From an uncultured Planctomycetales bacterium (GTDB lineage Bacteria; Planctomycetota; Phycisphaerae; UBA1845; PWPN01), in NCBI GenBank assembly GCA_964586235.1, contig CAZPIO010000004.1, positions 8,402 to 72,401 of the forward strand: DNA of 64,000 bases, written 5' to 3'. This document shows, one piece after another, positions 44,318 through 64,000 of this stretch. The stretch's first letter is position 1, and each line of letters begins with the position of its first letter. The position numbers were made by a program, and so were the translations under genes. Under the pieces are notes generated by a model. That model was not told where the DNA came from, made no database searches, and saw only the letters and a list, made by a program, of their open reading frames with translations.

Positions 44318-44369
44318 AGTGGAGTGAGGCATCGCCCAAATCGAGGCATCAAGCGGGAGGATACGACCC

Positions 44370-47066: not shown

Positions 47067-48611
47067 GCGGAGGTCCCACACCGTCAGGCCAGTCGAATCG
47101 CGCTTGCTCAGGTCCGGAAGGAGCAAGGACGCGATGTAGCCGACGGCGAACGAGGTGACATTCGAGCAGGTCGACAGCAGGAACGCATGGAACGGGAACC
47201 GGTATACTTGCCAGGCTTTCGGAAGGGTGATCTGCGCGAGCTCCAGCAGCTTGTCGGAGGTGCCCCAGGCGGTAACCGCAACGCCGGCCGCCAGACCGAT
47301 GTACACCCCCAGGGCGTGCGCCCGCCGCACGAGGAAAGCCAGCAGGAAAATGCCGAACAGGCCGCCGGCCAGGATTGAGTAGACCGTATAGCTGAAATCC
47401 AGCGCCTCCTGCACGCCGAGCATAGCCAGTCCCGCCGTGGTCCCGAGTGCCCCCCAGAAGCAGGTCGCGATCTTCGACAGCCTCAGGAGATGCCGGTCAG
47501 AAGCATGCGGGCGCACGCGGCGATAGAAATCGTTGATGGACACGAGCGCCATGCTGTTCATGTTCGTGTCGAGACAGGACACCCCCGCGGCGCACATCGC
47601 CGCGAGAACCAAACCGACCATTCCCGTCGGCAGGCAGGTCATCACGAAGTAAGGGAACACCCGGGTGTGCTCCGCAGCGATCTCCGCGGGCAGACGGCCT
47701 GGATAGATCTGGTATCGCGAGTAGAGCAGCGTGCCGATGAACATGAAAAGCGTCCAGGTGAACAGGCAGCCGCAGGCCCCGATCCAGACTCCCTTTCTCG
47801 CTTCGTGTACCGACTTCACGGCCAGGTAACGCTGCACGGTTTCCTGGGTCGTCGAGTAGCCGGAGCTGAAGCCGAAGAGCCCCATGAGCATCATGACCAG
47901 AATCGTCGGCTCGCTCAGATCGAAAGAGAGGTGAGCCAGTCGGAACTTGTCCGCACTGGCGGCCATCTCGATCATGTTCACCGGCCCGCCCGCGGTGGTT
48001 GTCAGGAGAACCGCGGCGCTGACCAGGCCGCCCAGCAGCAGCACGCCGGTCTGCAGGACATCCGTGCAGATCACGGCTTCGATGCCGCCGAGCACCGTGT
48101 AACCGATGGTGATCACCCCCGTCACCAGGATGACCAGCCGGACATCCCAGCCTGTCATGGTCTGGATGGCCTTGGCCTCGAGGAAGACGATAAAACCCAT
48201 CCGGAACAGGTTGTTGAGGATGTACAGCGTGGCCGCGAAGGCACGCGCGGGATATCCAAAGCGTTTTTCGAGGTACTCGTAGGGGCCGGCGCGGACCGTC
48301 CGGCGGTAGAACGGGATCACCACCAGGGTGATAAAGAGCACGGCAACAGGCAGCATGAAACCCGGCAGCAGGTTGGTCCAGTCGTCGCCGAAGCCGTCCG
48401 CCGGGTATGCCAGGAACGTCGCCGTGCTGATCGCCCCGGCGAAAAGTGAGATACCCGCCGCCCAGCCGGGTACGGAACGGCCGCCCATGAAGTACTCCTC
48501 GGTACTTGTTTGGCGGCGCGCGAACACCAGGCCGATCAGGGCAACGAGTCCAAAATAGACGACGACGACGCCCCAGTCTATCCACGTCAGAGTTTTGGCT
48601 GCCTCTTCCAC
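47004..48611 (-). CDS. Sodium:solute symporter (SSS), SiaT/sugar-type
   Basis: IDWGVVVVYF, EEYFMGGRSVPGWAAGISLFA, YEYLEKRFG, GGIEAVICTD and QETVQRY, with many TM helices. The GTG start at 48611 has a GAGG RBS. Confidence 0.92.
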   Translation of the reverse strand: MEEAAKTLTWIDWGVVVVYFGLVALIGLVFARRQTSTEEYFMGGRSVPGWAAGISLFAGAISTATFLAYPADGFGDDWTNLLPGFMLPVAVLFITLVVIPFYRRTVRAGPYEYLEKRFGYPARAFAATLYILNNLFRMGFIVFLEAKAIQTMTGWDVRLVILVTGVITIGYTVLGGIEAVICTDVLQTGVLLLGGLVSAAVLLTTTAGGPVNMIEMAASADKFRLAHLSFDLSEPTILVMMLMGLFGFSSGYSTTQETVQRYLAVKSVHEARKGVWIGACGCLFTWTLFMFIGTLLYSRYQIYPGRLPAEIAAEHTRVFPYFVMTCLPTGMVGLVLAAMCAAGVSCLDTNMNSMALVSINDFYRRVRPHASDRHLLRLSKIATCFWGALGTTAGLAMLGVQEALDFSYTVYSILAGGLFGIFLLAFLVRRAHALGVYIGLAAGVAVTAWGTSDKLLELAQITLPKAWQVYRFPFHAFLLSTCSNVTSFAVGYIASLLLPDLSKRDSTGLTVWDLRLREPQGNDLPGIQGQRDPAA

Positions 48612-48659
48612 TGTAAACCTCTTCGAATCCGGAACCACAGCGCTCGACAGGCGGCGAGC

Positions 48660-48689
48660 ATGCTAACCGCAGCGCAGGCCCGCAGGCAA
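48660..48689 (-). promoter_or_regulatory. Possible sigma70 promoter for the SSS gene
   Basis: Minus strand TTGCCT-N18-TAGCAT. Confidence 0.3.
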
Positions 48690-48862: not shown

Positions 48863-50014
48863 TCACACCGAGGCCACGGACTGCCGCGGGATCAGATCGA
48901 CGTCGATGACTGCATGCTCGGGCTCGATATCGATCTTGGGCGTCTGCAGACGTCGCTCGAGCAGCTCCACCGCTTTCCTCCCGATCTCCGTCGGCCGCTG
49001 TGCGACCACGGTCACCGGAGGCGTTATCGCCCGTGTGATATCCGAGTCGTCGACGCAGATGATGGAGACATCCTTCGGGATGCGCAACCCCAGCTCGCGG
49101 CACGCCTCGAAAGCACCCCACGCCACGTAATCATTGAGCGCGAAAAACGCCAGGGGCGGCCGGCAGTCCTGCAGCAGGGGCAACACCGCCTCGTACCCCT
49201 CGAGCCACCGCTTGCCCTCCCGAATGCCGCGCTTCGAAGCCTCAGGGTCGATCCAGACCATGTGTTTGCGGGTTGGCTCGGTGTCGCCTGCGATCATGGC
49301 CCTCTCAAAGCCGCGGATTCTCGCTGCAATCGAGGTCATGACCGACGGTTGCCAGGTGATCATGAAAACCTGCCGGTGTCCGTGTTGGAGCAGGTATTCG
49401 GTGGCCAGGTAGCCGGCCTTCTCATGGTCCGACTCGACGAGATCGACCCTCAACCCCGGCACGCCGCGATCCACGAGCACGATGGTGTGTCCGGCGAGTT
49501 TGAGCTTTACGAGAGTCTCCAGATTGGCGTGGCCGCCGCTCGGCAGGATGATCGTCCCGCGCGCCCCGGAGTCGATCAGCCGGGTGAGGTTGCTGGCCTC
49601 GAGATCGTCGCTGAGGCGTGCGTCATAGATGAGCAGCTCCCAGCCGCGCTGCTGGCAGGCTTGCTCGATGCTGCGAGCGATCTGCATCTCGAACGCCCCG
49701 CCGATGTTGATGGTTGTCACGGCGATCGTCACGCGTTTCCCGGCCTTGCTCGGGAAGGAAGGATGGACAAAGGCTCCCACGTCGCGCACATGGTAAAGGC
49801 ACCCCTCTCGCTCCAATACGCGGATCGCCTGTCGGATCGTGTTGGTGCTCACATTGAACTGGGTGGCGAGATCGCGGAGGGCAGGCAGTTTCACCCCGGC
49901 GATCAGTTGACCGTCGGTCATCTGCCGGCGCAACGCCTCCGTCACCGCACGGTAACGCGGAGCCCGGGGACGCCCGAGGACGTTGCGGTCGATCTTGCTC
50001 TGTCTGGCCTTCAT
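48863..50014 (-). CDS. GntR-HTH plus LacI-type sugar-binding domain transcriptional regulator (AraR-like architecture)
   Basis: LPALRDLATQFNVSTNTIRQAIRVLEREG wHTH followed by a periplasmic-binding-protein domain (VLVDR, FFALNDYVA, IPKDVSIICVDD). Confidence 0.92.
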   Translation of the reverse strand: MKARQSKIDRNVLGRPRAPRYRAVTEALRRQMTDGQLIAGVKLPALRDLATQFNVSTNTIRQAIRVLEREGCLYHVRDVGAFVHPSFPSKAGKRVTIAVTTINIGGAFEMQIARSIEQACQQRGWELLIYDARLSDDLEASNLTRLIDSGARGTIILPSGGHANLETLVKLKLAGHTIVLVDRGVPGLRVDLVESDHEKAGYLATEYLLQHGHRQVFMITWQPSVMTSIAARIRGFERAMIAGDTEPTRKHMVWIDPEASKRGIREGKRWLEGYEAVLPLLQDCRPPLAFFALNDYVAWGAFEACRELGLRIPKDVSIICVDDSDITRAITPPVTVVAQRPTEIGRKAVELLERRLQTPKIDIEPEHAVIDVDLIPRQSVASV

Positions 50015-50027
50015 ACCTATAGGATAA

Positions 50028-50170
50028 TCACTTTGTGACAGCGATTCAAGAGGAAACAAGTCGCTGTGAGAGCTCTTTGGTAGTACCTAAAGTATTGTTA
50101 TAGAACATGTTAAGGCCGATGAGGTGAAAATCGACTTGTTTCTCTGAAAACGCGACGTCACATTGTGACG
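50028..50170. promoter_or_regulatory. Mirror-symmetric divergent control region with candidate operators
   Basis: TCACTTTGTGAC (50028-50039) and CGTCACATTGTGACG (50156-50170). Perfect inverted pair GAAACAAGTCG (50053-50063) / CGACTTGTTTC (50132-50142). AT-rich core with TG-T-TATAGA at 50096-50104. Confidence 0.6.
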
Positions 50171-50304: not shown

Positions 50305-50360
50305 TGCGGCGCCGGCGTCCCGCCAGGCACGGGCATTACCGGCAGGACGCCTGTGCCGCA
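50305..50360. repeat. REP doublet
   Basis: TGCGGCGCCGGCGTCCCGCCAG and, on the opposite strand, TGCGGCACAGGCGTCCTGCCGG, in inverted orientation. Confidence 0.6.
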
Positions 50361-50565: not shown

Positions 50566-53500
50566 GTGAAGGAATGCATGCGCAGCCCGCGATTCTTGGC
50601 CGGTGCCGTTTTCGCTGTCGCCTTGAATGGCGCTGCGGTCGCGCAGGTTCTGGTCCTTGAGGATCCCTTGCAGGGATCCAAGATCGGGACCTTCGACGGC
50701 GGAAGCGGACAGTTTGTCATCGGGGGCTGGAAGATCACCAGCAAGGCGGATGCGATCTACTGGCATCTTCCACATACCGTGTACAAAGGCGCTGCGGAGT
50801 TCTCCGTAAAGGGACTGAATCCGAACGAGTGCCGGCCCGGGCTGACGGACAAGTCCGAGCTCTTCCACATGTACGACTACACGTACGAGAACGCTGATAC
50901 CAACTACGGCGGTTACCGGAACAACCCCTTCAAGCACTTCATCCGGAAGATCGGGTGCGACGGCGCCTACAAGAACGTGGTCGACGCTCTGGAACTGGTC
51001 CTGGTAATCGCCCCGAACTACCAGGAGCCGGACACGGGCGTTCTCGGCTGGAACGCCAACACCACGTACGTCTTTCGCGAAGAATGGGGGCCGGACGGAC
51101 AGGGGAACTGCGTTTTCAGAACCTACCGGGACGGCATCCTCCTGAAGACCATGAGCGAGCCCGGGAGTTGGTCTCCGTTTGGACACAGCGTACGCATCGG
51201 GCGGGCCAGGATGGACGAGTGGTCGGGTGCACCGCTCGACGCGATTTTCAGTTACGTGAAGGTCTGGGACATGGAGACGGCCATACCGACCGCGCCCGTT
51301 CTTACCAGTCCCGGCATCGGCAAAACGGTCAACACAATTACCCCGTGCATCCGGTGGGCCTGGACGCCGACGTTCAATCGTTACCAGGTGCGGATCACGA
51401 CCGGCAACAGCCCGACCGCCGGCATCGTCTGGGACTCGGGTGAGGTGATCTCGGTCCGCAACTATGCGGACACCGGGCCCCTGGCGAACCTGGCCAACTA
51501 CTACGCCTGGGTCAGGCTCGGTAACGTCGTCGGATGGACCGGCTGGAGTGCATCCGGCCAGTGGTTCAGGGTCGACACTTCCTACACACCGTTCAACCAC
51601 GGCGTGACGAGCCTCATCGGCAACTCGCTGAGAGACAGCCGAGGCGAGTTCCTCGGTCTTGGCTTCACCTACATGGAAGGCCTCGGCTTCTGCAGAAACG
51701 ATCGCGCCCGCTTCGAAAGCGACCTGGCGTTCATGTCGTCGAGGGGCTTCAACTACATGCGTATTCTCTCGGAAGTGCCCGGGGCGTGCGATCAGGACTA
51801 CTGGTACGGCAGAAGCATCAACGCCTCAACCTACACGTGCCAACACGGGTCTGTTGCCAACGAGTGGCCGGACTACGACCAGCAGTTCAGGGACATGGTC
51901 GACATCGCCTACGACAAGTACGGTTTGCGCACCGAGGTGACCATCTTCGGTGGGGCGGGCGAGTCATTCCCGACCTATGCCGGCCGGCAGGCCCATTGCC
52001 AACGAATCGTGAACCTGATCGCAGGGCGGGAACACAAGATCGCCTATATCGAGATCGCGAATGAAGCCTGGCAGACGGGGTTTCCGTGGCCCCAGGGCAG
52101 AGAGGATCTGCGTGCCCTGTGCAAGTACGTTGCCGACCGTACGGATGTGCTCGTTGCGATCACATCCATGAACGGGACCAACGATGATTTGATGGATCTC
52201 TACCTGGGCAGTGCGGCGGACATCGCGACGGAGCACTTCACTCGGGACACAACCGAGAACAACTGGATCATGGTCAGGGACTGCTGGAGAGTGCAGGACG
52301 CGGTGAACCTGGGTGTTCCGGCGGTGAGCAGCGATGAGCCGGCCGGTCCCGGCTCGTCGGTGGTGTCGGAAACCGACCCCATCAAGCTCGTCTCGGCTGC
52401 GTGCTTCGCCTGGATCGCCAAGCTGCCATCCTATGTGCTTCATTCGAGAGCCGGGGTGCGCGGCGACTACCGGTTCGAGGACATGGCGGGTGTCAATGAC
52501 TTCAAATACCTCCAGGACATCATCCCTCCGGACGTGGCGAGTTGGGCGCGAAACGACGGCAAGGAATCGGCAGCGCCCTTCACGGTCTATTGCGACGGCT
52601 ATGCCAACCAGTACTGGACCGACCCCGGCAGGAGCGGGGCCGTCACCGGCTGCCACAGAAACATCGGCGGGATCAAGTGCCTGGACTTCGTGTGCTACCC
52701 GCAGGGGATTCGCAGCGGAGGAGTCACGCTCGCGGCCAGAAGAGACATGAGCTTCAACGTCTATCATCCCATGACCGGTGAGGTTGTGGACTCAAGAACG
52801 CTGATCGAGGGCCAGAGTCTCACGCTGCCGCCGGGCCCCGGGGCCTACATCATCAAGGGCACGTTTCCCGGCGGCGACACGAGCCCGCCCGCGCCGGTGG
52901 TCAAGTTCGCGGCCAATCCCGGTGACGAACAGAACGTCTTGACGTGGACCAATCCCAGCGACGCCGATTTCTGGGGAACGAGGATCATCTGTCGGACCGA
53001 TCGGTTTCCGGAATCGGTGGATGACGGCACGGTGGTATGCGACAGCAGGGGCGGTCCAGGGTCAAAGGCGCTGTACGTCCACGCGGGTCTGGCCAACGGA
53101 GCGGCCTGCTACTATGCAGCGTTTGCCTATGACTGTCTGCCGAACTACTCGACGGCTGCGACCGACACGGCAAAGCCGCTGGAAGGTTTGTGCCTTTCGG
53201 ACGAATTCACCTATCCCAACGGGGACCTGAACGGCAATGATGGGTGGGCAGGCTCGGCCGGCCCGTACATCCGAATCGCCAACGACACGCTGGCGATCGA
53301 GGGGAGCGCGACCAGTTATGACGCGATCAGGATGGTGAGCTGCTCGGATCCCGGCACCGGTTGCATCAAGGTGTCGGTGAAGGTCCGCAGCGGTGTTGGC
53401 GACGCGACCATGTGGAGCTTGTGGTGCGACGATCCCTCGGGCAAGAATCTGGCCCGCTGGTATGGCGGGGGCACAACGGCCCGCGGCCGGATCGGGGATT

Positions 53501-53946
53501 CAGGTATCGTGACGGCTCTCCAGACGTTGACCGATGGTTGGGATTATCTGGTGGTCAAGATCGATCCCGCGGCCAACACCTCGGAGTTTCTCCTCAACGG
53601 GACCTCCATCGGTGCGCTCGATCACACCGGCACCGGGGCGGGTGATACCCTGGGCAGGCTCCGGTTCGAGAGCATCGCCAACAGCGAGGCCACCGGCCAC
53701 TATCTGTATTTCGATGACCTGAGGATCGGCGAGCCCTTGATACCGGGCGATTTTGACGGCGATGAAGACGTCGATCAGGAGGATTTCGGTCACCTGCAGC
53801 AGTGCCTGTCTGGAGACGGCGCAAGTGTAGCGCCGCAGTGCCAGAATGCCGATCTGGACCCGGACGGGGACGTGGATCAGCTCGATGTGAGTCGGTTCGT
53901 AGAGTGCATGGGCGGGTCGGGTCAGGCGTCGCCGTGCGCTCAGTAG
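50566..53946 (+). CDS. Secreted multimodular protein: beta-sandwich, FN3-like, clan GH-A-like TIM barrel, FN3, LamG-like, C-terminal dockerin-like module
   Basis: Signal peptide; IEIANEAW (candidate acid/base) and SSDEP (candidate nucleophile); FN3 module DTSPPAPV...YYAAFAYD; GDFDGDEDVDQEDF...ADLDPDGDVDQLD at 53746-53943. AAGGAG RBS. Confidence 0.8.
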   Translation: MKECMRSPRFLAGAVFAVALNGAAVAQVLVLEDPLQGSKIGTFDGGSGQFVIGGWKITSKADAIYWHLPHTVYKGAAEFSVKGLNPNECRPGLTDKSELFHMYDYTYENADTNYGGYRNNPFKHFIRKIGCDGAYKNVVDALELVLVIAPNYQEPDTGVLGWNANTTYVFREEWGPDGQGNCVFRTYRDGILLKTMSEPGSWSPFGHSVRIGRARMDEWSGAPLDAIFSYVKVWDMETAIPTAPVLTSPGIGKTVNTITPCIRWAWTPTFNRYQVRITTGNSPTAGIVWDSGEVISVRNYADTGPLANLANYYAWVRLGNVVGWTGWSASGQWFRVDTSYTPFNHGVTSLIGNSLRDSRGEFLGLGFTYMEGLGFCRNDRARFESDLAFMSSRGFNYMRILSEVPGACDQDYWYGRSINASTYTCQHGSVANEWPDYDQQFRDMVDIAYDKYGLRTEVTIFGGAGESFPTYAGRQAHCQRIVNLIAGREHKIAYIEIANEAWQTGFPWPQGREDLRALCKYVADRTDVLVAITSMNGTNDDLMDLYLGSAADIATEHFTRDTTENNWIMVRDCWRVQDAVNLGVPAVSSDEPAGPGSSVVSETDPIKLVSAACFAWIAKLPSYVLHSRAGVRGDYRFEDMAGVNDFKYLQDIIPPDVASWARNDGKESAAPFTVYCDGYANQYWTDPGRSGAVTGCHRNIGGIKCLDFVCYPQGIRSGGVTLAARRDMSFNVYHPMTGEVVDSRTLIEGQSLTLPPGPGAYIIKGTFPGGDTSPPAPVVKFAANPGDEQNVLTWTNPSDADFWGTRIICRTDRFPESVDDGTVVCDSRGGPGSKALYVHAGLANGAACYYAAFAYDCLPNYSTAATDTAKPLEGLCLSDEFTYPNGDLNGNDGWAGSAGPYIRIANDTLAIEGSATSYDAIRMVSCSDPGTGCIKVSVKVRSGVGDATMWSLWCDDPSGKNLARWYGGGTTARGRIGDSGIVTALQTLTDGWDYLVVKIDPAANTSEFLLNGTSIGALDHTGTGAGDTLGRLRFESIANSEATGHYLYFDDLRIGEPLIPGDFDGDEDVDQEDFGHLQQCLSGDGASVAPQCQNADLDPDGDVDQLDVSRFVECMGGSGQASPCAQ

Positions 53947-53977
53947 GAATGACCTGCGATTAAGGAGAGAATCAGGC

Positions 53978-55078
53978 ATGAAACGATGGATCTACGTTGG
54001 GCTTGTTGTCTGGTCGCTGACGGGGCCGACGGATGCTGCTCTGCCGCCGATGGGCACCTCGGCCAAAATCCTCAAGCCCACTTTCTTCCCGGGTTGGCAA
54101 TGTCACAACGTTTGTTACCCCTTCGTGATCCCGGAACCGGGCACCGGCAGGTACCGGATGTACTACGCCGGGTCGGCGACGGAGCAGATCAACGACTCCT
54201 TCGCGGATCAGTGGGTGACCGGCTACGTTACCTCCGCTGCGGACACGACGGCCTGGACTTATCCGATCAACTATGAGCAGGTGCTGTTCGCGCGCCGGTT
54301 CATGGAAGGCGACGTTGTTGATCGCGACGAGACGGCGAGTGTCTTCGACTCGATCTATGCCATTGGCGCGTGCTTGATGGTCGAGGGCTCGACCTGGAAG
54401 GTCTGGTACACCGGCTGGAACGGCCAGACCGAGCCGACTGGTCCGGGCACCTGCAAGAAGATCAACTTCCGCATCGGCTACGCCACCTCACCGGACGGCA
54501 TCCGCTGGACCAAGGTTGCCGACTCAGCCGGTGCCGGGGCGGTCCTTGGTCTTGGTCAGGCAGGCGAAGCGGATTCCAAGGGCGCGGCCCATCCACACGT
54601 AATGAAAATCAGCGGCGCCTACCGCATGTGGTACGAGGGCTACGACGGGACCACCTGGCGGCTGATGGCCGCCACCTCATCGGACGGCCAGGCCTGGACT
54701 AAACAGGGCGTGGTACTCAACCCTGGTGGTGCCGGCAGCCTGGATGAGCGCGGCCTGCGCAACCCGCTGGTACTGAGCAGAAAAGGCTCGTATGAGCTCT
54801 GGTATCAGGGCCAGAGCGCCGCCGCTCCCAACTATCACGTGCTGCGAGCCACCAGCCCGGATGCTTCGACCTGGACCAAGGCGACCGGCGAGGTCACACT
54901 CCACCCGGACACCGCGCTGACCGGCGACGAGAGCATCCTGGTGGACAGCGCCATCGTCCAGCCCGACGGCAAGGTGCAGGTCTTCTTCGCCAAGCAGACC
55001 ACCAGCTCCAGAACCGCCACGTACGGAACGCTCACCCGGAGGAGCTACTGCATCTACACCGAGGTGGTGAACCCATGA
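53978..55078 (+). CDS. Secreted five-bladed beta-propeller glycosidase-like protein (GH43/32/130-like)
   Basis: Repeated blades YRMYYAG, WKVWYTG, IGYATSPDGIRWTK, HPHVMK-YRMWYEG, ATSSDGQAWTK and YELWYQG. AAGGAG RBS. Confidence 0.75.
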   Translation: MKRWIYVGLVVWSLTGPTDAALPPMGTSAKILKPTFFPGWQCHNVCYPFVIPEPGTGRYRMYYAGSATEQINDSFADQWVTGYVTSAADTTAWTYPINYEQVLFARRFMEGDVVDRDETASVFDSIYAIGACLMVEGSTWKVWYTGWNGQTEPTGPGTCKKINFRIGYATSPDGIRWTKVADSAGAGAVLGLGQAGEADSKGAAHPHVMKISGAYRMWYEGYDGTTWRLMAATSSDGQAWTKQGVVLNPGGAGSLDERGLRNPLVLSRKGSYELWYQGQSAAAPNYHVLRATSPDASTWTKATGEVTLHPDTALTGDESILVDSAIVQPDGKVQVFFAKQTTSSRTATYGTLTRRSYCIYTEVVNP

Positions 55079-57705
55079 ATATGCGGACACCATCTCAGCA
55101 GCATTCGCGAGGGGGGTTCTACATTGCAGCGATCCTCGTCGCGACACCATGCCTGATCCCGGCCGCGTCCCTCCACGCGGTCACGCCGTCCTGGACGTCC
55201 CCCGACCGCTATCGCATCCTCCTGACCGTGGATCCTCGCGGGCAGAATCGATCCAACTCGCCGGCCTCCGTTACCGTTGATTTCGCCCAGGCACTGGTCG
55301 CCAGAGGAGTCACCGGCACTTTCGACAAGGATACTGTGGAAGTCATCGCCTACGACGCCGCAGGCAACCCGGTGACCTTTGACGCCACGCGGCCCGGATA
55401 TGAGCAGTACCTGTTGCCCTGGCGGATCGACGCGGCCTACGGAATCAACCAGGTTGCCCTGAGCTTCGTCGTGCCCGACGAAGCTCATACGCAGTACGCG
55501 GTCTACTTCGACACGGCGCAATCCGGGCTCGGCCGGCCGGATCGATATCCCGGCATCGTCGGTGACGGCGATCGCTTCATCGAAGGCTATAAGCGCCGCG
55601 AAATCAATGCCAGCGGCTACGACACGTTCTGTGATGTCGACGGCGACGGCGATCTCGATCTGTTCAAGGGTGGCACCGAGCCCTATGTCTACGTCTACGA
55701 AAACGTGGGCGGCGACCGCATGGTCGAGCGCGGCCGTCTCACCTCCGGCGGAAGCGTGCTTCAATTCCCCATGGACGGCAACCACCGCAGTTGGAATTCC
55801 ATCGAGCTCTACGACTGGGACGGTGACGGCGATCAGGACATGTTCATCCATTCGCCGACCGGCCCTTACGCCGGCAGGGTCATTTGTTTCGAGAACACCA
55901 CTCTGGCCGGCGGGCTGCTGACTTTTGCCAGTCCCGTCATCGTGCTGACGCAATCGGGCAGGAGCCTCGGCACGCCGGTCCGGTTCGCGGACTTTGACGG
56001 CGATGGCAAGACCGACGTGATCGGTTCGCTGGACGGGCTGGTCGTCTTCTACAAGAACATCGGATCGAGCAGCAGCATCTCGAGCATCCAGTTGGCTGAC
56101 GGTGTCTACATCAAGGCCAACGGAATCGAGATCGAGGTCATGTCGGCCCAGGTCGAGTGCAAGGACATGGACAGCGACGGTGATCTGGACATGTTCGTCG
56201 GCACCGAGGAGGGGCGGGTCTACTACTTCGAGAACGTGGGCACGCGAACGCAACCGGTGTTCACCCTGGGCCAGCTAGCCGCGTTCTATGAGTTCATGGA
56301 CCAGCGGGTCGGCGTGCGGGTATTTGACTTCGACGGCGACGGGTTGCTGGACTTCGTGCCCGGCCGTTACTGGGAGCGCACCCAGTGGGGCGAGCAGCCG
56401 CGGGTTTACGGCCGGCTGTACAAGAACGTCGGAACGCCTACGGCTCCGCGATTCGAGGTCCGCGATGCCGACAACGGCGCCCCGTACACCGAGCGGTTCC
56501 AGATCGCCGACGCTGTTCGGCAGAACGGCGTCCGGGCGGTCGACTGGAACAACGACGGCAGGACCGACCTAATCGCCGGCGACACCGACGGCTTCGTATG
56601 GTACTTCCAGAATACCACCAACCAGCTCTTTCCCGTCTTTGCCGCCGGCGTCAAGCTCCAGGCCGACGGCCAGCCGCTGCGGGTCTACGGCGAGGACGGC
56701 TGGTACGACTCCGATAGCGGTACATTCGTCTGGCTGAACCGCGCCGCCGGTTACGCCCGAGTGGAGATCTGCGACTGGAACAATGACGGCCGAAAAGATC
56801 TTCTCGTCGCTGACGGCCGGGCCTGGCTCTGGCTCTATTTGAACACCGGCACCGATGCCGACCCCGTGCTGGCCGCCGGCACGCGGGTGAACGCCAACGA
56901 CAAGCCTATCGACGGGACCGCCCGCGGCAGCGTCCTGGTTTGCGACTGGAACGGCGACGGCAAGAAAGACGTCATCTTTGGCATGGCCTCCAACGAGAAC
57001 GCCTACAGCGAATACCACGATTGGCCCGACCGGGCCGATCAGCCCGGCAAATGGTGGATGCACGGTGGTTTCCTCTTCTACGAGAATACCGGCAGCGATG
57101 CCAGCCCGGTTCTGGCCGCCCCTGCCTGGATCAAGTTCAGCTCGGGCACGGTGATTACCTACAGCCGGCCCAACCTCGGCGACTTCGTCGACTGGGACGG
57201 CGACGGCAGGAAGGACTTCATCGGCTGCGAATTCGAGAACAGCGCTCGCATGTACCGCAACACCGGCACAAACGCCGCTCCCAGCTTCTCAGGATCGGAT
57301 GGCGTTCACATCGTTCAGCCCTACACGGTGCAAATGATGTCCGGGACCGACGCCATCGACTGGAACCAGGACGGTGACATCGACATTCTTACCGGCCAGG
57401 GACACGGCGGCAGCGGCCTGCGATTCTACGAGCGGGATTACATCAACGATTCTGTCAATAACACCTTCCCCGTCGTGACCGTCGGCCAGATCGAGACCCA
57501 GCCCACGGATGCCGATCTCGACGACGATAGCGACGTGGATCAGGCGGACTTTGGCGAGCTTCAGGAATGCATCAGCGGCAGGGGGGTTCCCTACGGCCCA
57601 GGATGTGCCGACGCTGACCTGGACGTGGATGGCGACGTGGATGAGTCCGACATTGCCGTGCTTCTGGACTGCATGGCGGGCTCCGATCAGCCTCCGGGCT
57701 GCTGA
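55075..57705 (+). CDS. Secreted FG-GAP repeat protein with C-terminal dockerin-like module
   Basis: Collinear with 25821-28157 (WTSPxxYRI, SPASV, R[YF]WERT, FQIxDAV, GQGHGGSGLRF[YF]ERD), plus DADLDDDSDVDQADF...ADLDVDGDVDESD at 57508-57702. Confidence 0.9.
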   Translation: MNMRTPSQQHSRGGFYIAAILVATPCLIPAASLHAVTPSWTSPDRYRILLTVDPRGQNRSNSPASVTVDFAQALVARGVTGTFDKDTVEVIAYDAAGNPVTFDATRPGYEQYLLPWRIDAAYGINQVALSFVVPDEAHTQYAVYFDTAQSGLGRPDRYPGIVGDGDRFIEGYKRREINASGYDTFCDVDGDGDLDLFKGGTEPYVYVYENVGGDRMVERGRLTSGGSVLQFPMDGNHRSWNSIELYDWDGDGDQDMFIHSPTGPYAGRVICFENTTLAGGLLTFASPVIVLTQSGRSLGTPVRFADFDGDGKTDVIGSLDGLVVFYKNIGSSSSISSIQLADGVYIKANGIEIEVMSAQVECKDMDSDGDLDMFVGTEEGRVYYFENVGTRTQPVFTLGQLAAFYEFMDQRVGVRVFDFDGDGLLDFVPGRYWERTQWGEQPRVYGRLYKNVGTPTAPRFEVRDADNGAPYTERFQIADAVRQNGVRAVDWNNDGRTDLIAGDTDGFVWYFQNTTNQLFPVFAAGVKLQADGQPLRVYGEDGWYDSDSGTFVWLNRAAGYARVEICDWNNDGRKDLLVADGRAWLWLYLNTGTDADPVLAAGTRVNANDKPIDGTARGSVLVCDWNGDGKKDVIFGMASNENAYSEYHDWPDRADQPGKWWMHGGFLFYENTGSDASPVLAAPAWIKFSSGTVITYSRPNLGDFVDWDGDGRKDFIGCEFENSARMYRNTGTNAAPSFSGSDGVHIVQPYTVQMMSGTDAIDWNQDGDIDILTGQGHGGSGLRFYERDYINDSVNNTFPVVTVGQIETQPTDADLDDDSDVDQADFGELQECISGRGVPYGPGCADADLDVDGDVDESDIAVLLDCMAGSDQPPGC

Positions 57706-57721
57706 GGGAAAGGACGGATTG

Positions 57722-60700
57722 ATGAGACGGTTGCGGCTGGCAGTGATGTGTATTGGTCTTATCGGCGGTGCGTTGGCAGCGGAGCGGCCCGCGCCGGCTG
57801 GATTGGTTCTGGACGATCCCTTGTCCGCGACGCCGCCTCCCTCGCCGCCCAATCCGGTACGGCTTGGCTCGGGCGGTGAGTTCGTCTCCGGCGGGTGGAA
57901 AGTCACCGGTAAGAACGACCACATCCTCTGGCATCTGCCCACCCTGACCGGCGGGGCGGTCGAATTCGACGTCACCGGGATTAACGCCGACGAATGCCGT
58001 GCGGGGATGCAGGATCATTCCGAGATCTTCCACATGTATGATTACACGTGGGGCAACTCGGATACGGTCTACAACGGCGGATACCGGGACAACCCGTACA
58101 AGTGTTTCCTCCGCAAGACCGGGGCGGGTTACTGGGCGGGCGACCCTGCCGTTTTCGTCGATTGCCGCGGCAACGCCAAGACCGACTCGATGGAGATCCT
58201 GTGGAAGATCTGTCCGGACAACGACTCCTCATGTCAGAGCAATTATCTCGAGAGTGACACCGCTATCCTGACCTGGAGCCCGGCCGTCACTTACCATTTC
58301 CGCCTGGAATGGGAGTCCAACGGCTCGACCACGACGCTCAGGACCTACCGCGACGGCGTCCTGATCATGACCCAGACGCTGTCCGGCACCTACTCGCCGG
58401 CCGGCCAAAGCACCCGCATCGGAGCCAGCAATCGCGGCGACACGTATGCGGGTGCGCCGATCGACGCCGTTTTCAGTAACGTCAAGGTCTACGATTCGCA
58501 GACCGGCGAGCCCGGCGTCCCCACGATCATCAGACCCGCCGGCGGTGCGACCATCAACACGACGACGGCCTTCGTCGAGTGGACCGGCGACCCGCAATCA
58601 CAGTTCCAGGTCCGGGTGAATACGTCCGATCAGCCGGACACGGGCGTGGCCTGGGATTCCGGATTGGTTACCTCCAGCCAGCGGTTCACCTGGACCGGCA
58701 GTCTGCTGAACAATGTGACCTACTATGTGTTTGTCCGGTTGGCCAATGGCGGTGAGCCCGGCCCGTGGAGCGCCGGCGGCCGAAGCTTTACGGTCAATAC
58801 CGCCTATGTCCCGCCCGGCGCGAGCGTCGTGCAGCTCTGGGGGAACTCGGTGGTGGACAATACCGGGCCGATTCACGGCCTCGGCGCGACCTACATGTCC
58901 GCCCTGCGCCGCTGCAAGTACGACCGCACGCGGTTCCAGAGCGATCTGGCCTTCCTGGCGTCCAACGGTATCAGATACATTCGCGTGCTGTCCATGGTGG
59001 GCTGGTATTCGGCCTGGCAGGGCAAGGAGATCGCCCCGGTCAGCTTCACCAGCCAGAACGGAACCTACGTCCCCGCCTGGCCGGATTACTGGCAGCAGTT
59101 CCGCGACATGATCGACATTGCCTATGACACGTACGGGATACGCATCGAGCTGACCATCTTTGCCGACGCCCAGCTCATGCCCACCAAAACCGCACGCATC
59201 GCCCACATGCAGACCATCCTGGACAATCTCCAGGGCCGGGTCGACCAGGTCAACCGCGAGCACAAGATCATGCACCTGGAGGTGGCCAACGAGGCCTGGC
59301 AGAACGGGTTCCCGGACAGCCAGGGCATAGCCGACCTGCGCGAGTTCTGCCAGTACTTGACGGACCGTACCAGCCTGCTGGTAGCCATCACCGACTCGCA
59401 GGGCGAAGGCAGCGCCACCGAGCAGCTTTACAGCGGCAGCACCGCCGACCTTGCCACCGAACACTTCAGCCGCGATATCGGAACCGTCGAGGGCGGCTGG
59501 CTGCCGGTGCGCGACCCCTGGGACTTCGAGCTGCTCAACGGCGTGCCGACGGGCAGCAACAACGAGCCTATCGGGCCCGGTTCGTCCGTCGCCCAGGAGC
59601 GCGACCCCATCAAGCTGGTCATGTGCGCGGCGTTTACCTGGGGGGCCAACCTGCCCTTGTACGTGTTCCACTCCGAGGCCGGCGTGTTCGGCAACACCAC
59701 CTTCGAGAGCAACCCGGGCATCCGCGACTATGTCCACATTCTCAATATCATCCCGCCTGACATGGTCAGTTGGGTGCGTAACGACGGCAAGGAAGCCGGC
59801 GCCGCGTTTACCACGTACTGCAACGGCCAGGCCAACAAGTGGTGGCCCGAGGTCAGCGGGGCCAGCAGCGGCGTGGTCCGCAACACCGGCAAGATCAAGG
59901 GCGGCGAGTTCCTCACCTTCCCGATTGGAATCCTCACCGGCGGCGTCGAGCTCGAGGCCCGCAGGCCCATGAGTTTCCAGGTCTACAACCCGTTGACCGG
60001 CGAGGTGGCCTACAACCTCACCAAGAACACCGGAGATCGCTTCACTCTTGCCCAGGGGTCGGGCGCATACGTCATCAAAGGCGTCTTCACCGACGTGGTG
60101 AATCCTTTCAACGATGCGACCATCGACCTGGGCTCGCCCGATGTGTCCAACGGGCTTGTCCTGACCACCAACGACGACGGCCACACCACGCCCGTGACCA
60201 TCGGCGGCCGGAGCTGCCGCCAGAACACCAACCCCGCGGCCGGCGACTACTACTTCTACTTCAATGTGAACGACGCGTTCGCCTTCCAGGGCAGCAAGCC
60301 GGACGTCTACATCATCCTCGAATACTACGATGCGGGCACGAGCACGATCACACTGGAATACGACTCGAGTACCGGCCCTGCACCGGATGCCTATTACCGC
60401 AACGGCGGCAGTGTGACCCTGGCCGACACGAACACCTGGAAGTTCAAGACCTTCCATGTGACCGACGCTTACTTCGGCAACCGCCAGAACGCCGACGCCG
60501 ACCTCCGCTTCGGTGATGTCGGCAATGTGTTCTACCTTGACACCGTGCGGATCACGACCGAGCCGCCGGTGGCACCGGTGATCGACGAGGTGACACCCGA
60601 TCCGGAGATCGCTCGGCCAGATACCGCATACACGCGGCAGTTGCTGCTGTCGCAGGGAAGCCCTGTGCCGGACTGGTCGGTGGTGCAGGGACCGGAGGGC

Positions 60701-61033
60701 GCTCAGGTCAGCCCAACGGGCCTGGTGAGCGGGTGGACCCCCGGTCTCACTGATTTCGGCTCCTTTGTTTTCGAGATCGAAGCGACCAATTCGGAGGGAT
60801 CGGACACAGAGGCCTGGGTCGTTCAGGTGGTGTCGTGGTCCGACCTTGACCTCGACGGTGACGTGGATCAGGCCGATTTCGGCCTCTTCCAGAAATGCCT
60901 CTCCGGCGACGGCCTGGGCTACGTCGACGGATGCGAGAACGCCGATCTGCAGGAGGATGGGGATGTCGATGCCTTGGATTTTCAGATCCTCCAATCCTGC
61001 ATGAACGGAGCCGACCGGCCCCCGCGGTGCTGA
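57722..61033 (+). CDS. Secreted multimodular protein paralogous to 50566-53946: GH-A-like barrel, CBM-like module, Ig/cadherin-like domain, dockerin-like module
   Basis: The ATG at 57722 has an AAAGGA RBS. Motifs HLEVANEAW, ATEHFSRD and SNNEPIGPGSS; YFYFNV...WKFKTFHVTDAYFGNRQN module; dockerin-like module at 60842-61030. Confidence 0.8.
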   Translation: MRRLRLAVMCIGLIGGALAAERPAPAGLVLDDPLSATPPPSPPNPVRLGSGGEFVSGGWKVTGKNDHILWHLPTLTGGAVEFDVTGINADECRAGMQDHSEIFHMYDYTWGNSDTVYNGGYRDNPYKCFLRKTGAGYWAGDPAVFVDCRGNAKTDSMEILWKICPDNDSSCQSNYLESDTAILTWSPAVTYHFRLEWESNGSTTTLRTYRDGVLIMTQTLSGTYSPAGQSTRIGASNRGDTYAGAPIDAVFSNVKVYDSQTGEPGVPTIIRPAGGATINTTTAFVEWTGDPQSQFQVRVNTSDQPDTGVAWDSGLVTSSQRFTWTGSLLNNVTYYVFVRLANGGEPGPWSAGGRSFTVNTAYVPPGASVVQLWGNSVVDNTGPIHGLGATYMSALRRCKYDRTRFQSDLAFLASNGIRYIRVLSMVGWYSAWQGKEIAPVSFTSQNGTYVPAWPDYWQQFRDMIDIAYDTYGIRIELTIFADAQLMPTKTARIAHMQTILDNLQGRVDQVNREHKIMHLEVANEAWQNGFPDSQGIADLREFCQYLTDRTSLLVAITDSQGEGSATEQLYSGSTADLATEHFSRDIGTVEGGWLPVRDPWDFELLNGVPTGSNNEPIGPGSSVAQERDPIKLVMCAAFTWGANLPLYVFHSEAGVFGNTTFESNPGIRDYVHILNIIPPDMVSWVRNDGKEAGAAFTTYCNGQANKWWPEVSGASSGVVRNTGKIKGGEFLTFPIGILTGGVELEARRPMSFQVYNPLTGEVAYNLTKNTGDRFTLAQGSGAYVIKGVFTDVVNPFNDATIDLGSPDVSNGLVLTTNDDGHTTPVTIGGRSCRQNTNPAAGDYYFYFNVNDAFAFQGSKPDVYIILEYYDAGTSTITLEYDSSTGPAPDAYYRNGGSVTLADTNTWKFKTFHVTDAYFGNRQNADADLRFGDVGNVFYLDTVRITTEPPVAPVIDEVTPDPEIARPDTAYTRQLLLSQGSPVPDWSVVQGPEGAQVSPTGLVSGWTPGLTDFGSFVFEIEATNSEGSDTEAWVVQVVSWSDLDLDGDVDQADFGLFQKCLSGDGLGYVDGCENADLQEDGDVDALDFQILQSCMNGADRPPRC

Positions 61034-61139
61034 ACATGGCAGACGAAGCGATGAATCAACCGCGTTCCAGACCGGCTGGCCTTGCCGGAGTCGACGTCAC
61101 GCTGCGGGCGATCGCGATCGCAATCAGAGGGCCAACGAA

Positions 61140-62909
61140 ATGAACAGACACGCCATCACGGTCTGGGCCCTGAGGATTCTCGCTGCGGGCATGGCGCACA
61201 CGCCCTTCGTGGTGAGCGCGCAGTCCACCGCCGGCGAGTTCCTTAACGAACCGTACAACGTGGGCGATGAACTGGCGAGTGACCAATGGCCACATCACAT
61301 CTGCTACAACCCCGACCGCAACGAATACCTGGTGGTCTTCAATGACAGGAGGGCCGACCCTCGCTGGATCATCTCCTACTATATCCTCGACGGAGAGGGA
61401 AGAAAGCAGACATCCAGGCCCCTGGGCAGCATCACCGATGATCCACTCGTCGGAAGCCACTACGGTGCCGCTACGTACGACCCCGGCAGCCAGGAGTACC
61501 TCATCGCCTACAGCGGCTGGCTGGGCACACCCCGTGTTGACGAACACGATCAGCTTCGTTCGCACAGAGTCAATGCCGACGGGAATCTGGTCGGAAGCAG
61601 CAACCTGATCCACGACGGCCAAGGCGGCATAGGCAACCCGCTGCGAGGCATCCAGATGGCCTATTCGCCGACCAGCGACGTACACCTCGTTGCCTGGAAG
61701 GACGACAAGGCGACAGGCTGTGAGGTCTATGCAACGCTCCTGGGCGGAACCACCGGCGTCCGAGTCAGCGCCCTCTTCAATCTCAGCCAAGGTGACCCCC
61801 GGTATTCCGATTGGCCGGTGGTGGCGTGGAATTCTGCGCGCGACGAGTTTCTCGTGGTCTACCAGGTCAGTTGCGAAGATGTCAACCAGGGATGGAACCT
61901 CTACGGGAGGCGAATTCACGCGGGCAATCAGATCATGAGCGGGCGTTTCCAGATAACCGACCGGCCAGGATGGGAGTGCGATGGCAACCTTGCCTACGAC
62001 GCCGATCTGGACCGCTACCTGCTGGCCTACGAAGATACGAGCGCCGGGCAGTGGGTCTGGGGGCAGTTCCTCACGCCGGACGGTGAGCCATCCGGCCCGC
62101 GCTTCGACCTGCTCGCTCCGCCCTACATCGGCCGCGGGGCATGGCTTACCTGGCACCCGATCACGCGGGACTTCCTGCTCGGCTGTATTCACCAGGAGAG
62201 CTTCGCCAATATCGGCCGGCGGATCTCTCAGGTCGGCGTGCCGTTAGGCGATCCTTTCGTTGTTACCGGCGCCATCAGTATCTTGCCGGGGAACTTCGAC
62301 CCGTTCCCGATTGCCAACACTCTCACTAACGACTACCTCTACGCCTGGTGCAGCGGCTACAAGGACGTCTATTCACGGCGATATAAAACGTTGCCTAGGT
62401 CTGACGTGACCCCGCCGGTCCCGGTCACTCAGTTCACGGCCACTGCCGGTCACGGACAGAACACTCTGAGTTGGACCAATTCGACCAGCGCCGATTCCCT
62501 GGGCACCATCATCCGCTGCAAGACGACCGGTTACCCGACCGATGCTCATGACGGATTGCCCGTGACGATCCGGCCCAAGTCGCCCGGTGCCAGCGACACC
62601 TTCGTACACGCCGGGCTCGTCCGGGCGAACACGTACTATTACGCCGCCTTTGCCTACGACGCGATTCCCAATCACGCGTCCGCGGCCCAGGTCAGCGCCC
62701 GGCCGCTGGCCCCGGCGGATTTCGACAGTGACGACGACGTGGATCAGCAGGACTTCGGGCATCTGCAGAGATGCTTTGGCGGCTCCGGCCAGCCAATTGC
62801 GGCCGGCTGTGAAGATGCCGACCTCGACGACGAGGGCGACGTCGATGCCGATGACATGGACGTTTTCATCGGTTGCATGAGTGGGGCGGACCGGCCCCCG
62901 GAATGCTGA
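61140..62909 (+). CDS. Secreted 7-repeat beta-propeller plus FN3 plus dockerin-like module
   Basis: Seven repeats (YNPDRNEYLVVF, YDPGSQEYLIAY, YSPTSDVHLVAW, WNSARDEFLVVY, YDADLDRYLLAY, WHPITRDFLL, NTLTNDYLYAW), FN3 DVTPPVPV...YYAAFAYD, and a dockerin-like module at 62715-62906. Confidence 0.82.
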   Translation: MNRHAITVWALRILAAGMAHTPFVVSAQSTAGEFLNEPYNVGDELASDQWPHHICYNPDRNEYLVVFNDRRADPRWIISYYILDGEGRKQTSRPLGSITDDPLVGSHYGAATYDPGSQEYLIAYSGWLGTPRVDEHDQLRSHRVNADGNLVGSSNLIHDGQGGIGNPLRGIQMAYSPTSDVHLVAWKDDKATGCEVYATLLGGTTGVRVSALFNLSQGDPRYSDWPVVAWNSARDEFLVVYQVSCEDVNQGWNLYGRRIHAGNQIMSGRFQITDRPGWECDGNLAYDADLDRYLLAYEDTSAGQWVWGQFLTPDGEPSGPRFDLLAPPYIGRGAWLTWHPITRDFLLGCIHQESFANIGRRISQVGVPLGDPFVVTGAISILPGNFDPFPIANTLTNDYLYAWCSGYKDVYSRRYKTLPRSDVTPPVPVTQFTATAGHGQNTLSWTNSTSADSLGTIIRCKTTGYPTDAHDGLPVTIRPKSPGASDTFVHAGLVRANTYYYAAFAYDAIPNHASAAQVSARPLAPADFDSDDDVDQQDFGHLQRCFGGSGQPIAAGCEDADLDDEGDVDADDMDVFIGCMSGADRPPEC

Positions 62910-62922
62910 AAAGAGTGTTCGA

Positions 62923-64000
62923 ATGAGCGACTCAAAAGCGATGCTCTTGACTGTCATCGCGGCCGGTGTGCTGCTGGCCGCGGGCCGTCCCGCCCAGGCT
63001 GGCATGATGCACGAGCCTCAAGCGCTGGACGAAGCCAACGGATGGAACCCGGATGTCGCCTTTGATGCGGAGCACGGCGTCTACCTGGCTGTCTGGTCCG
63101 GCGAGGGTGTCTGTGGTCGAATCCTCGACAGCGATGGGAAACCGGTGACTGGCAAATTCCACATCGCCGCTTCGGTCTGCTACAACGGCTACCCCGCTGT
63201 TGCCTACAACCCCGAGGACGACGAGTTCCTCGTGACCTGGGACAACTGCTCCATCTACGGGCAGCGGGTGAAGTCCCCGACCGGTGTCTTGGAGGGGAGC
63301 GTTTTCCTGATCAGCGCGACTCCTGGCGAGCGATCGGCCGTAGCCTGGGGTCCGGGTCCGGACGCGGAGAGTGGGTGCTACCTTGTTCTGTACTCCAATT
63401 GGGTCGACGTCTACGGGCAGCGCGTCAGCCGCTCGGGTGTTCTGGTGGGGGGCGAGCTCGCGCTCGGCGGTTATAGCTATCCGGCGGTGTCCTACAGCAC
63501 GTCAGCCAGGACCTTCCTGGGAACCTGGGACGACGGCTATGGCCGCATCGAGGCGAGATTGATCCCATTGAACCACGCCTTGCCGGTGGGAAGCTCTTTT
63601 CTGGTGACTCCCGAGGGCGTTGCCGATCGATCGCACATCGCGCGCGATGACGCCCTTGGCCGCTGGCTGGTGCAGTACCAGGATCAGAGTCGTATGGCGA
63701 CCCAGGATTATGACCAATTCGCCCGATTTGTGAACGACAACGGCACGCTTGGTCCCGGACCGTACCCGGCGGCCGACAGACCGGAATTCGAAGGCGAGAC
63801 CAATCTCGGCTGCGACATCGCCTTCGCTTCCAAGGCGGGCGTGTATTTCTCTGTTTTCGGCACGAATGACGGTATCTTCGGCCAGCTCCTCGATCACACT
63901 GGCATCAAGCGTCGGGGGCGGGTCGACATAGGTCTGGGCAACTACACTCTCCACAGCAACGCTGCCGACCCCGATCGAGACCGCTTCCTGACCGTCTATT
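62923..64000 (+). CDS. Secreted 7-repeat beta-propeller protein, 3' end truncated by the window edge
   Basis: Not in the ORF track. Manual translation is open from the ATG at 62923 to the edge: signal peptide, then FDAEHGVYLAVW, YNPEDDEFLVTW, GCYLVLY, YSTSARTFLGTW, DALGRWLVQY, SKAGVYFSVF and DPDRDRFLTVY. Confidence 0.82.
   Translation, partial: MSDSKAMLLTVIAAGVLLAAGRPAQAGMMHEPQALDEANGWNPDVAFDAEHGVYLAVWSGEGVCGRILDSDGKPVTGKFHIAASVCYNGYPAVAYNPEDDEFLVTWDNCSIYGQRVKSPTGVLEGSVFLISATPGERSAVAWGPGPDAESGCYLVLYSNWVDVYGQRVSRSGVLVGGELALGGYSYPAVSYSTSARTFLGTWDDGYGRIEARLIPLNHALPVGSSFLVTPEGVADRSHIARDDALGRWLVQYQDQSRMATQDYDQFARFVNDNGTLGPGPYPAADRPEFEGETNLGCDIAFASKAGVYFSVFGTNDGIFGQLLDHTGIKRRGRVDIGLGNYTLHSNAADPDRDRFLTVY

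Follow-up and report, generated by a model that had tools for sequence, protein, structure and literature searches.

Type I dockerins of the clostridia (PF00404), such as those of CelS and Xyn10B, are composed of a duplicated F-hand of ~22 residues with 12-residue Asp/Asn Ca2+ loops. They span ~60-70 amino acids (aa), fold into three helices, and are found at the C-terminus of Sec-exported, often glycan-active enzymes, in many copies per genome. Here, we describe a relative of these domains in a 64,000-nucleotide (nt) stretch of DNA from an uncultured Planctomycetales bacterium (contig CAZPIO010000004.1, positions 8,402 to 72,401), referred to as the window. The relative is a 63-aa module at the C-terminus of four secreted proteins encoded in one gene cluster. 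It shares all of the above features with the clostridial dockerins (the three-helix fold by prediction) but has four invariant Cys residues that the clostridial domains lack, and it is called the 4-Cys module, 4-Cys dockerin, or tag below. We consider it a new variant, a distinct and very abundant subtype within the known dockerin family. By analogy with its relatives, there is about an even chance that it acts as a disulfide-stapled, Ca2+-dependent docking tag to a common receptor in the envelope or on a scaffold.

Dockerins have been published from planctomycetes. Andrei et al. (2019, ISME J; PMC6461901) found dockerins and cohesins in Nemodlikiaceae, with peptidase cargo, and put forward the "planctosome" hypothesis. 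As in the window, dockerins are carried there by secreted Planctomycetes/Phycisphaerae hydrolases, and the docking proposed is non-cellulosomal and at the outer membrane. The planctosome was based on peptidase cargo and on cohesins that occur alongside the dockerins, whereas the window cluster has glycan-active cargo and no cohesin was seen. Planctomycete sulfatases bear dockerin modules (PMC6995999), and kelp-associated planctomycetes have expanded dockerin sets (PMC5264255). None of these three reports describes the 4-Cys subtype. NF041540, the "GC-type dockerin domain-anchored protein", is a curated dockerin subtype whose name implies anchoring, and it is different from the 4-Cys subtype. 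A literature search returned no description of a 4-Cys dockerin subtype, and a search on cysteine or disulfide dockerins or the "GC-type dockerin" returned nothing relevant to bacteria. Other domains that are C-terminal on diverse exported cargo include SLH, RTX of type I secretion systems (T1SS), the C-terminal domain (CTD) of type IX secretion systems (T9SS), and PEP-CTERM. These have no sequence or fold kinship to the module, and the analogy is one of function only.

The cluster extends from 50566 to the window end and contains six close-packed open reading frames (ORFs), P1 to P6, all on the + strand. The gaps from P1 to P6 are, in order, 31, -4, ~16, 106, and 13 nt, the negative value being a 4-nt overlap of the P3 start with the P2 stop. 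Because the gaps are so short, the arrangement is operon-like. On visual inspection and under a rough rule, all six N-termini are signal-peptide-like, each combining a charged start with a hydrophobic core and an AxA-like site, so the original prediction of six co-oriented genes with signal peptides stands. The genes and modules are:

P1, 50566-53946, + strand: 1126 aa, secreted, multidomain
P1 module, 53749-53937, + strand: 63 aa, with AQ between it and the stop codon
P2, 53978-55078, + strand: 366 aa, secreted GH130-like beta-propeller protein
P3, 55075-57705, + strand: 876 aa, secreted, FG-GAP/VCBS-type repeats and a C-terminal 4-Cys dockerin
P3 module, 57514-57702, + strand: 63 aa, with the stop codon directly after
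P4, 57722-61033, + strand: 1103 aa, P1 paralogue with a C-terminal 4-Cys dockerin
P4 module, 60842-61030, + strand: 63 aa
P5, 61140-62909, + strand: 589 aa, secreted, with seven repeats, an Fn3-like domain, and then a 4-Cys dockerin
P5 module, 62718-62906, + strand: 63 aa
P6, 62923-64000, + strand: N-terminal 359 aa seen; the ORF runs past the window end

The P4 start was set at the signal-peptide-like MRRLRL (57722); the longest ORF, from 57509, would overlap P3. Four of the five complete genes are tagged, as had been predicted with module coordinates that were off by 0-6 nt, and P2 is the sole complete gene without a tag. In a six-frame motif scan of the window, the module occurs at 53749, 57514, 60842, and 62718 and nowhere else, and the same motif gave 6 matches against 0 in 100 Markov-randomized windows. 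Independent metagenomes from bioreactors and anaerobic digesters contain the region at 95-99% identity, so it is not an assembly artefact.

The module had been read as a dockerin variant from the letters alone, and Pfam, profile matches in the PDB, and the predicted fold all agree. The four copies show 51% identity to the P1 copy and have 27 invariant columns, all four Cys among them. Each half of the module is an F-hand of the form D1-x-D3-x-D5-x-D7-V8-D9-x-x-D12, followed by a helix. Asp occupies loop positions 1, 3, 5, 9, and 12 in both repeats of all four modules, with the exception of Gln at position 3 in repeat 2 of P4. The same tandem F-hand segments, a 12-residue loop plus a helix, appear in a logo of 175 relatives. 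Pfam Dockerin_1 matches all four modules at E 2e-8 to 5e-4. Relative to the curated PF00404 gathering threshold of 22.9 bits, the P1 module (32.7 bits, E 8.7e-8) and the P4 module (34.8 bits, E 2e-8) are above, and the P3 module (21.8 bits, E 2.1e-4) and the P5 module (20.7 bits, E 4.8e-4) are slightly under. Such marginal scores set the module apart from clostridial dockerins. A metagenome fragment that is near-identical to the P4 module (P0001) has a precomputed PF00404 assignment, and one relative is named "Dockerin type I domain" by the Joint Genome Institute (JGI). The module is thus less novel than the original prediction took it to be, as Dockerin_1 is already called on two of the four modules and planctomycete dockerins were already in the literature.

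Structural comparisons lead to the same family. A profile of the four modules matches the Clostridium thermocellum double dockerin 8x39 (E 6e-6) and the CelS dockerin (E 7e-4) in the PDB, as well as dockerins of C. cellulolyticum. The AlphaFold2 (AF2) model of the P1 module has a predicted local distance difference test score (pLDDT) of 87 and three helices at residues 14-23, 33-38, and 48-57. In a Foldseek search of the PDB with this model, the best 22 matches were all dockerins. The best of them, 2y3n_B, aligns with template modeling (TM) scores of 0.70/0.79 and a root-mean-square deviation of 1.5 A. When solved dockerins such as CelS are aligned to the module profile, they have no Cys at the four positions, in keeping with the earlier claim that the fixed pattern is lacking in clostridial dockerins. 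Judged from these matches and the predicted fold, the module is a dockerin-family domain plus an added, fixed Cys pattern. Two other identities were rejected. For a TSP3 or plain EF-hand domain, Pfam gives only Dockerin_1, with EF-hand_6 at E 0.6, and a calmodulin-type fold aligns poorly (TM ~0.27). NF041540 does not match the four window modules at E<=10, and it matches 4 of 20 module relatives weakly (best E 0.02).

The repeat unit of the module consists of the 12-residue Ca loop, a helix ending in Cys19, 10-13 further residues, and the second Cys. Among 528 F-hand repeats from 285 proteins, both Cys are present in 427, neither in 67, and one only in 34 (odds ratio 105, as a raw tally with no phylogenetic correction). 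In variants with a third repeat or a degenerate last repeat, both Cys of that repeat are lost together. Because the Cys of a repeat are kept or lost as a pair, a local disulfide within each repeat (C1-C2 and C3-C4) is most likely, rather than staples across repeats. Disulfides of this kind would fit a protein that folds after export.

The 4-Cys module is very abundant. A word-indexed homologue search with the module returned 17 short fragments only; hence, an exhaustive profile search was performed over 1.84 billion representative proteins. This profile matched 13,058 protein clusters at E<=1e-3 and 4,658 at E<=1e-10. The strict 4-Cys regular expression is satisfied by 113 of the 146 top matches, and 104 of these 113 have the module within 5 aa of the C-terminus. 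A genome scan, with one genome per species and the pattern DVDQ[EAD]DFG, matched >544 stretches, of which 340 were confirmed and the best 80 loci were analyzed. All 80 loci are from metagenome-assembled genomes (MAGs) of Planctomycetota/Phycisphaerae, which agrees with the planctomycete-like host that had been predicted. The full module is present in 127 ORFs of the 80 loci, within 5 aa of the stop codon in 115 of them. Two or more tagged genes occur in 31 of the 77 loci with a match to the regular expression, and 95 of 118 tagged proteins have a signal-peptide-like start. The complete 4.28-Mb MAG CP070790.1 encodes at least 29 tagged ORFs in 18 fetched loci. Dockerin_1 reaches E<=1e-4 in only 13 of 77 tagged proteins, so standard annotation under-calls the subtype.

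This distribution bears on one alternative, in which the module would be an export or sorting signal, a folded C-terminal domain read by a secretion or attachment machine in the manner of the T9SS CTD or PEP-CTERM/exosortase. The placement at the extreme C-terminus, the N-terminal Sec signal that accompanies it, and the dozens of unrelated cargo proteins per genome would all suit such a signal. It would also suit such a signal that the operon leaves only one protein untagged, an enzyme expected in the periplasm. Classical dockerins, however, are mostly C-terminal too, yet they are not sorting signals. The module has no homology to a known sorting domain, with NCBIfam giving weak dockerin-type matches only, and no dedicated machinery gene recurs beside the tagged genes in the related loci. 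We regard a sorting signal as quite unlikely.

The cargo of the tag is diverse. The 77 tagged proteins include 57 Pfam families, among them PKD, TSP_3, LVIVD, BACON_2, Ig, DUF362, sulfatase, FG-GAP_3, GHL10, GH18, NAGPA, GDSL, and GH99. No cellulase signature was found in the cargo of these 77 proteins, and plant-cell-wall-degrading enzymes, the main cargo expected of a cellulosome, do not predominate. This census upholds the view that unrelated Sec-exported proteins share the module as a C-terminal tag and that many of these proteins are glycan-active. The same census shows that many tagged proteins are non-enzymatic and unrelated to one another. In a relative, a 2848-aa tagged protein with thrombospondin-type-3 repeats is encoded at 2240-10783 of locus L036.

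Comparison with relatives of the cluster demonstrates how the tag is distributed within an operon. Clusters like P1-P6 were found in two other Phycisphaerae genomes, GCA_041890195.1 (locus L082) and AMX-MBFR-13 (locus L003). In L082, the orthologues are 63% (P4), 58% (P1), 65% (P5), 53% (P6), 70% (P2), and 67% (P3) identical, and the cluster has a further P5 paralogue and a GH99 protein in addition. Seven of these eight L082 proteins end in the 4-Cys module, the exception being the GH130-like P2 orthologue (13257-14354). L003 has orthologues of P1/P4, P5, P2, and P3 in conserved order, with 62% identity for P3; its P2 orthologue lies at 10362-11549, and tag status was read for the P2 proteins of the window and L082. 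The P6 orthologue of L082 is complete at 534 aa and ends in a 4-Cys module. Given this orthologue, P6 very probably ends in the module as well, beyond position 64000. The contrast between the untagged GH130-like protein and its tagged neighbors possibly reflects a split between a periplasmic enzyme and surface enzymes.

Outside of these clusters, the tag can be absent or replaced. The module is missing from all 120 listed homologues of the P1 core. For most, no origin is named, and the few named ones include Verrucomicrobiae, Pirellulales, Armatimonadetes, and Abditibacteriota; several have CBM6/CBM35 in their precomputed Pfam lists. All eight close P5 homologues end in the module, one of them being the database entry of P5 itself (P0285). 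A distant relative of the P5 family from Chloroflexota instead has a confirmed C-terminal SLH domain. For three other distant P5 relatives, the precomputed Pfam lists include an RTX domain. The tag is modular, and because the distant P5 relative ends in SLH, the tag occupies the place where another lineage puts an envelope-anchoring domain.

As SLH binds cell wall polymers, its occurrence at the same position of a cargo homologue invites a second alternative, that the module binds a non-protein ligand in a Ca2+-dependent manner, for example an envelope polysaccharide, lipopolysaccharide, peptidoglycan, or the substrate glycan. That no protein partner was detected would be in line with this. 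Dockerins are not known to bind carbohydrate. Furthermore, the cargoes attack very different substrates, which makes binding of the substrate glycan itself unlikely. We consider a non-protein ligand improbable.

In 11 modules from the window and L082, repeat 1 never departs from Q10, F13, G14, and Q17, whereas the equivalent positions of repeat 2 in these modules vary. Across 175 modules, the frequencies in repeat 1 and repeat 2 are 75% versus 39% for Q10, 81% versus 33% for G14, and 87% versus 46% for Q17; the search pattern DVDQ[EAD]DFG and the profile introduce some bias into these figures. Positions 10, 14, and 17 share one face of the helix by their i, i+4, i+7 spacing. In clostridial type I dockerins, the cohesin contacts are positions 10, 11, 17, 18, and 22. 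On the sequences available, the conservation of helix 1 fits a single conserved binding face. Because only the helix-1 face is conserved, a single binding mode would be expected, unlike the dual mode of clostridial dockerins; the module also differs from these in its asymmetry, in its occurrence in a diderm planctomycete, and in that no cohesin was found.

The bias in these frequencies weighs against a docking function, as do the results that follow. Conservation of Q10, G14, and Q17 across thousands of clusters could equally be a structural need, such as helix packing. In cellulosomes, recognition residues vary between species, and those of the 4-Cys module do not. The Foldseek E-values of the 63-aa module are weak (0.04), as is expected at such a small size, and the literature search returned no experiment on any member of the subtype. 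The search for a partner was negative throughout. Pfam Cohesin (PF00963) is absent from the ~40 window proteins, with the unannotated ones searched at E<=1. There is no cohesin in nine repeat-rich neighbors of tagged genes, several of which carry variant dockerins themselves, and none among the PDB sequence matches of three large candidate proteins. A phmmer search with cohesin 2 of C. thermocellum CipA, verified against 1OHZ, found no match in 5,728 six-frame ORFs from the window and 83 loci (1.35 Mb). Cohesin is also not among the 25 listed Pfam families of the 77 tagged proteins. These searches covered the window and related loci and no whole genome, with a single clostridial query of low sensitivity. 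The cohesin negatives are weak for this reason and because a planctomycete cohesin may be too divergent.

Two further explanations must be considered with these results. The module may be structural and have no partner, serving as a Ca2+- and disulfide-stabilized C-terminal cap that aids folding, solubility, or protease resistance. Its conserved residues do include core-type positions (F13, F/L16, and the Cys), the same residues are kept across thousands of clusters, and no partner was found in the window or related loci. Non-cellulosomal dockerin-like modules without known cohesins are reportedly widespread (Peer et al. 2009, as cited in PMC6461901). A stabilizer, however, need not be strictly C-terminal on dozens of unrelated proteins per genome. 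Its absence from homologous cargoes of other lineages would be unexpected, as would its presence where a distant relative has the cell wall-anchoring SLH, and the spacing of Q10, G14, and Q17 fits a surface stripe. A purely structural role seems to us unlikely.

The other explanation is the planctosome, in which the tags would bind a multi-cohesin scaffoldin encoded elsewhere and the enzymes would form a glycan-attack complex at the outer membrane. Homology of the module to dockerins, the many glycan-active cargoes, and the clustering of tagged genes speak for it. Cohesin/dockerin pairs and a model have been reported for Nemodlikiaceae (PMC6461901), and a two-cohesin scaffoldin has been reported in Limihaloglobus, a bacterium of the Planctomycetes-Verrucomicrobia-Chlamydiae group (PMC11557425). 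On the other hand, the searches detected neither a cohesin nor a repeated scaffold, whether in the 64-kb window or in the ~1.3 Mb that surround 127 tagged genes, many cargoes are non-enzymatic and unrelated, and the recognition face is the same in distant genomes, whereas cohesin-dockerin pairs are species-specific. We think it doubtful that the module belongs to a planctosome. In one locus (L063, 9278-14620), a 1781-aa neighbor of tagged genes combines a Lamin-tail domain with CotH and CHB_HEX_C; it is the Lamin-tail domain that the planctosome model puts forward as an anchor.

The original prediction is partly supported by this comparison. Its statement that no cohesin or scaffoldin is visible holds for the window and for ~1.3 Mb of related loci. 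The cellulosome-like glycan-attack complex that it proposed is not demonstrated by anything found, and because no cohesin or scaffoldin was found in the window or related loci, this part is unproven. The new-fold partner that it suggested is purely speculative.

Docking to a common receptor is taken as the likeliest function because of the homology with dockerins. In the explanation that we propose, the region would be a conserved glycan-utilization operon of a Phycisphaerae-class planctomycete, probably under GntR/LacI control. Its Sec-exported proteins would carry a portable C-terminal tag, seen in four and expected in a fifth (P6) from the orthologue. The C1-C2 and C3-C4 disulfides would form after export. 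The tag, in a Ca2+-dependent manner, would then tether otherwise unrelated exo-proteins to a single shared receptor, located in the cell envelope or on a scaffold. Contact with the receptor would be made in a single mode through the Q10/G14/Q17 face of helix 1, leaving the helix-3 equivalent free to vary. The untagged GH130-like enzyme would stay soluble in the periplasm and complete the breakdown of imported oligosaccharides.

The cargo proteins of the cluster are consistent with glycan utilization. P1 is composed of a signal peptide, an N-terminal domain of no known family, an Fn3-like segment, a core related in fold to glycoside hydrolases (GH) of clan GH-A, beta-rich domains, and the dockerin. 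P4 is 47% identical to P1 over 800 aa (BLASTP), and its C-terminal spacer domain differs. The cores are located as follows:

P1 core, aa 326-785, 51541-52920, + strand: (beta/alpha)8 plus beta-sandwich in the AF2 model
P4 core, about 58790-60130, + strand: same GH-A-like core as P1

The P1 core has no match in Pfam, NCBIfam, or PDB sequences, and every named protein among its 141 homologues is "hypothetical". The AF2 model of the core (pLDDT 90) matches GH140 (3kzs, 8t9w), BVU_2644 (4qfu), a GH5 mannanase, and GH30 xylanases in Foldseek, with E 4e-15 to 1e-10 and TM ~0.64. Like GH140, GH5, and GH30 of clan GH-A, the core is predicted to have a (beta/alpha)8 barrel with a C-terminal beta-sandwich, though the identity to these structures is only 9-13%. 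N174-E175 and E266 are invariant across 46 P1-core homologues. They would correspond to the acid/base (strand 4) and the nucleophile (strand 7) expected in this clan. The fold matches, together with the invariant Asn-Glu pair and second Glu, support a clan GH-A-like glycoside hydrolase, in agreement with the GH-A-like barrels predicted earlier. From the model, the core appears to be an undescribed glycoside hydrolase family.

P2 matches Pfam Glyco_hydro_130 at E 5e-6 (26.1 bits, with a cut-off of 26 bits), and in NCBIfam it has weak matches to beta-1,2-mannobiose phosphorylase and beta-1,2-mannosidase. P3 matches Pfam FG-GAP_3 in 6 stretches (E 3.1e-37), and the earlier FG-GAP assignment is correct. 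P5 had been called a 7-blade propeller. It does have seven ~55-aa repeats, spaced at 52-62 aa and ending in motifs like EYLVVF/DRYLLAY, and these fit the call; the propeller fold itself is putative. P5 has no family match in Pfam or the PDB, and its distant relatives are precomputed as PF22847. P6 is a distant P5 paralogue with 23% identity.

Divergent to the cluster is a probable transcriptional control gene:

regulator, 48863-50059, - strand: divergent to the cluster, ~500 nt upstream of P1

Its product matches Pfam GntR (E 1e-14; helix-turn-helix) and Peripla_BP_3 (E 2.5e-32; LacI-type sugar sensor). This GntR/LacI protein is a candidate regulator of P1-P6. Two elements lie in the intergenic region between the regulator and P1. 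A 7-1-7 palindrome, CGTCACA-T-TGTGACG, at 50156-50170 in an AT-rich stretch is a candidate operator, and a 20-nt inverted repeat at 50305-50360 (85% complementary) is a candidate leader structure. A scan for promoters and terminators gave sites that were not above those of shuffled sequence.

Upstream of the regulator, at 38697-48662, the window encodes a BNR-repeat (sialidase-like) protein, an 807-aa protein of no family, a DHDPS-family (N-acetylneuraminate-lyase-like) protein, a URO-D-like protein, a GH38 alpha-mannosidase, and an SSF symporter. GFO/IDH/MocA oxidoreductases are also found upstream in the window. This setting suggests that the whole 25-kb neighborhood is one glycan-utilization island, and mannan or N-glycan is a reasonable guess for the type of substrate.

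The remainder of the window is untagged. A second FG-GAP_3 protein of 793 aa, without a dockerin module, is encoded at 25824-28202 (- strand) and adjoins GFO/IDH/MocA, xylose-isomerase-like TIM, and DUF4838/GH67N-like genes. Six ORFs of 425-1175 aa at 14049-22808, 30696-32882, and 39809-42229 have coding-like codon bias and no dockerin module; against Pfam at E<=1, they have marginal matches at best (E>=0.026). The genes at 3-8428 (- strand) encode electron-transfer proteins unrelated to the tag cluster: an NADH-quinone oxidoreductase 20-kDa-like protein, a Fer4/FAD oxidoreductase, two CCG-domain (HdrD-like) proteins, and the alpha and beta subunits of the electron transfer flavoprotein (ETF).

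Exact-sequence look-ups with P5 and P2 returned no public contig, and the sole near-identical piece is a 1.4-kb JGI fragment. A few 151-nt contigs from sludge RNA-Seq match the region, which is too thin to call expression. Logan contigs of other metagenomes (runs X1 and X2) jump from 53791 to 57517, that is, from the P1 module to the P3 module, and from 56243/56246 to 56941, between FG-GAP repeats of P3. With anchors of 21-24 letters, these jumps are most likely repeat-induced mis-joins and not real deletions.

Planctomycetes, and Phycisphaerae especially, have an unusual diderm envelope and rank among the main degraders of complex glycans in wastewater, in sediments, and on algae. A single recognizable tag, with dozens of copies per genome and ~13,000 clusters, makes a candidate surface or secreted proteome of these bacteria definable from sequence alone. 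The helix-1 face offers point mutants, and the module is usable as bait for its receptor, cohesin-like or not. Two cargo families of the cluster are unannotated, the GH-A-like hydrolase core and the seven-repeat protein. Because the operon is conserved with GH130-like and, in relatives, GH99 enzymes, both are candidate new carbohydrate-active families. There is a small chance that the tag is the address label of a Phycisphaerae-wide surface display and that its receptor is a non-cohesin envelope protein or machine. If true, the module would represent a new class of sorting or anchoring tag for diderm bacteria of the Planctomycetes-Verrucomicrobia-Chlamydiae (PVC) group, carried by dozens of exo-proteins per genome.

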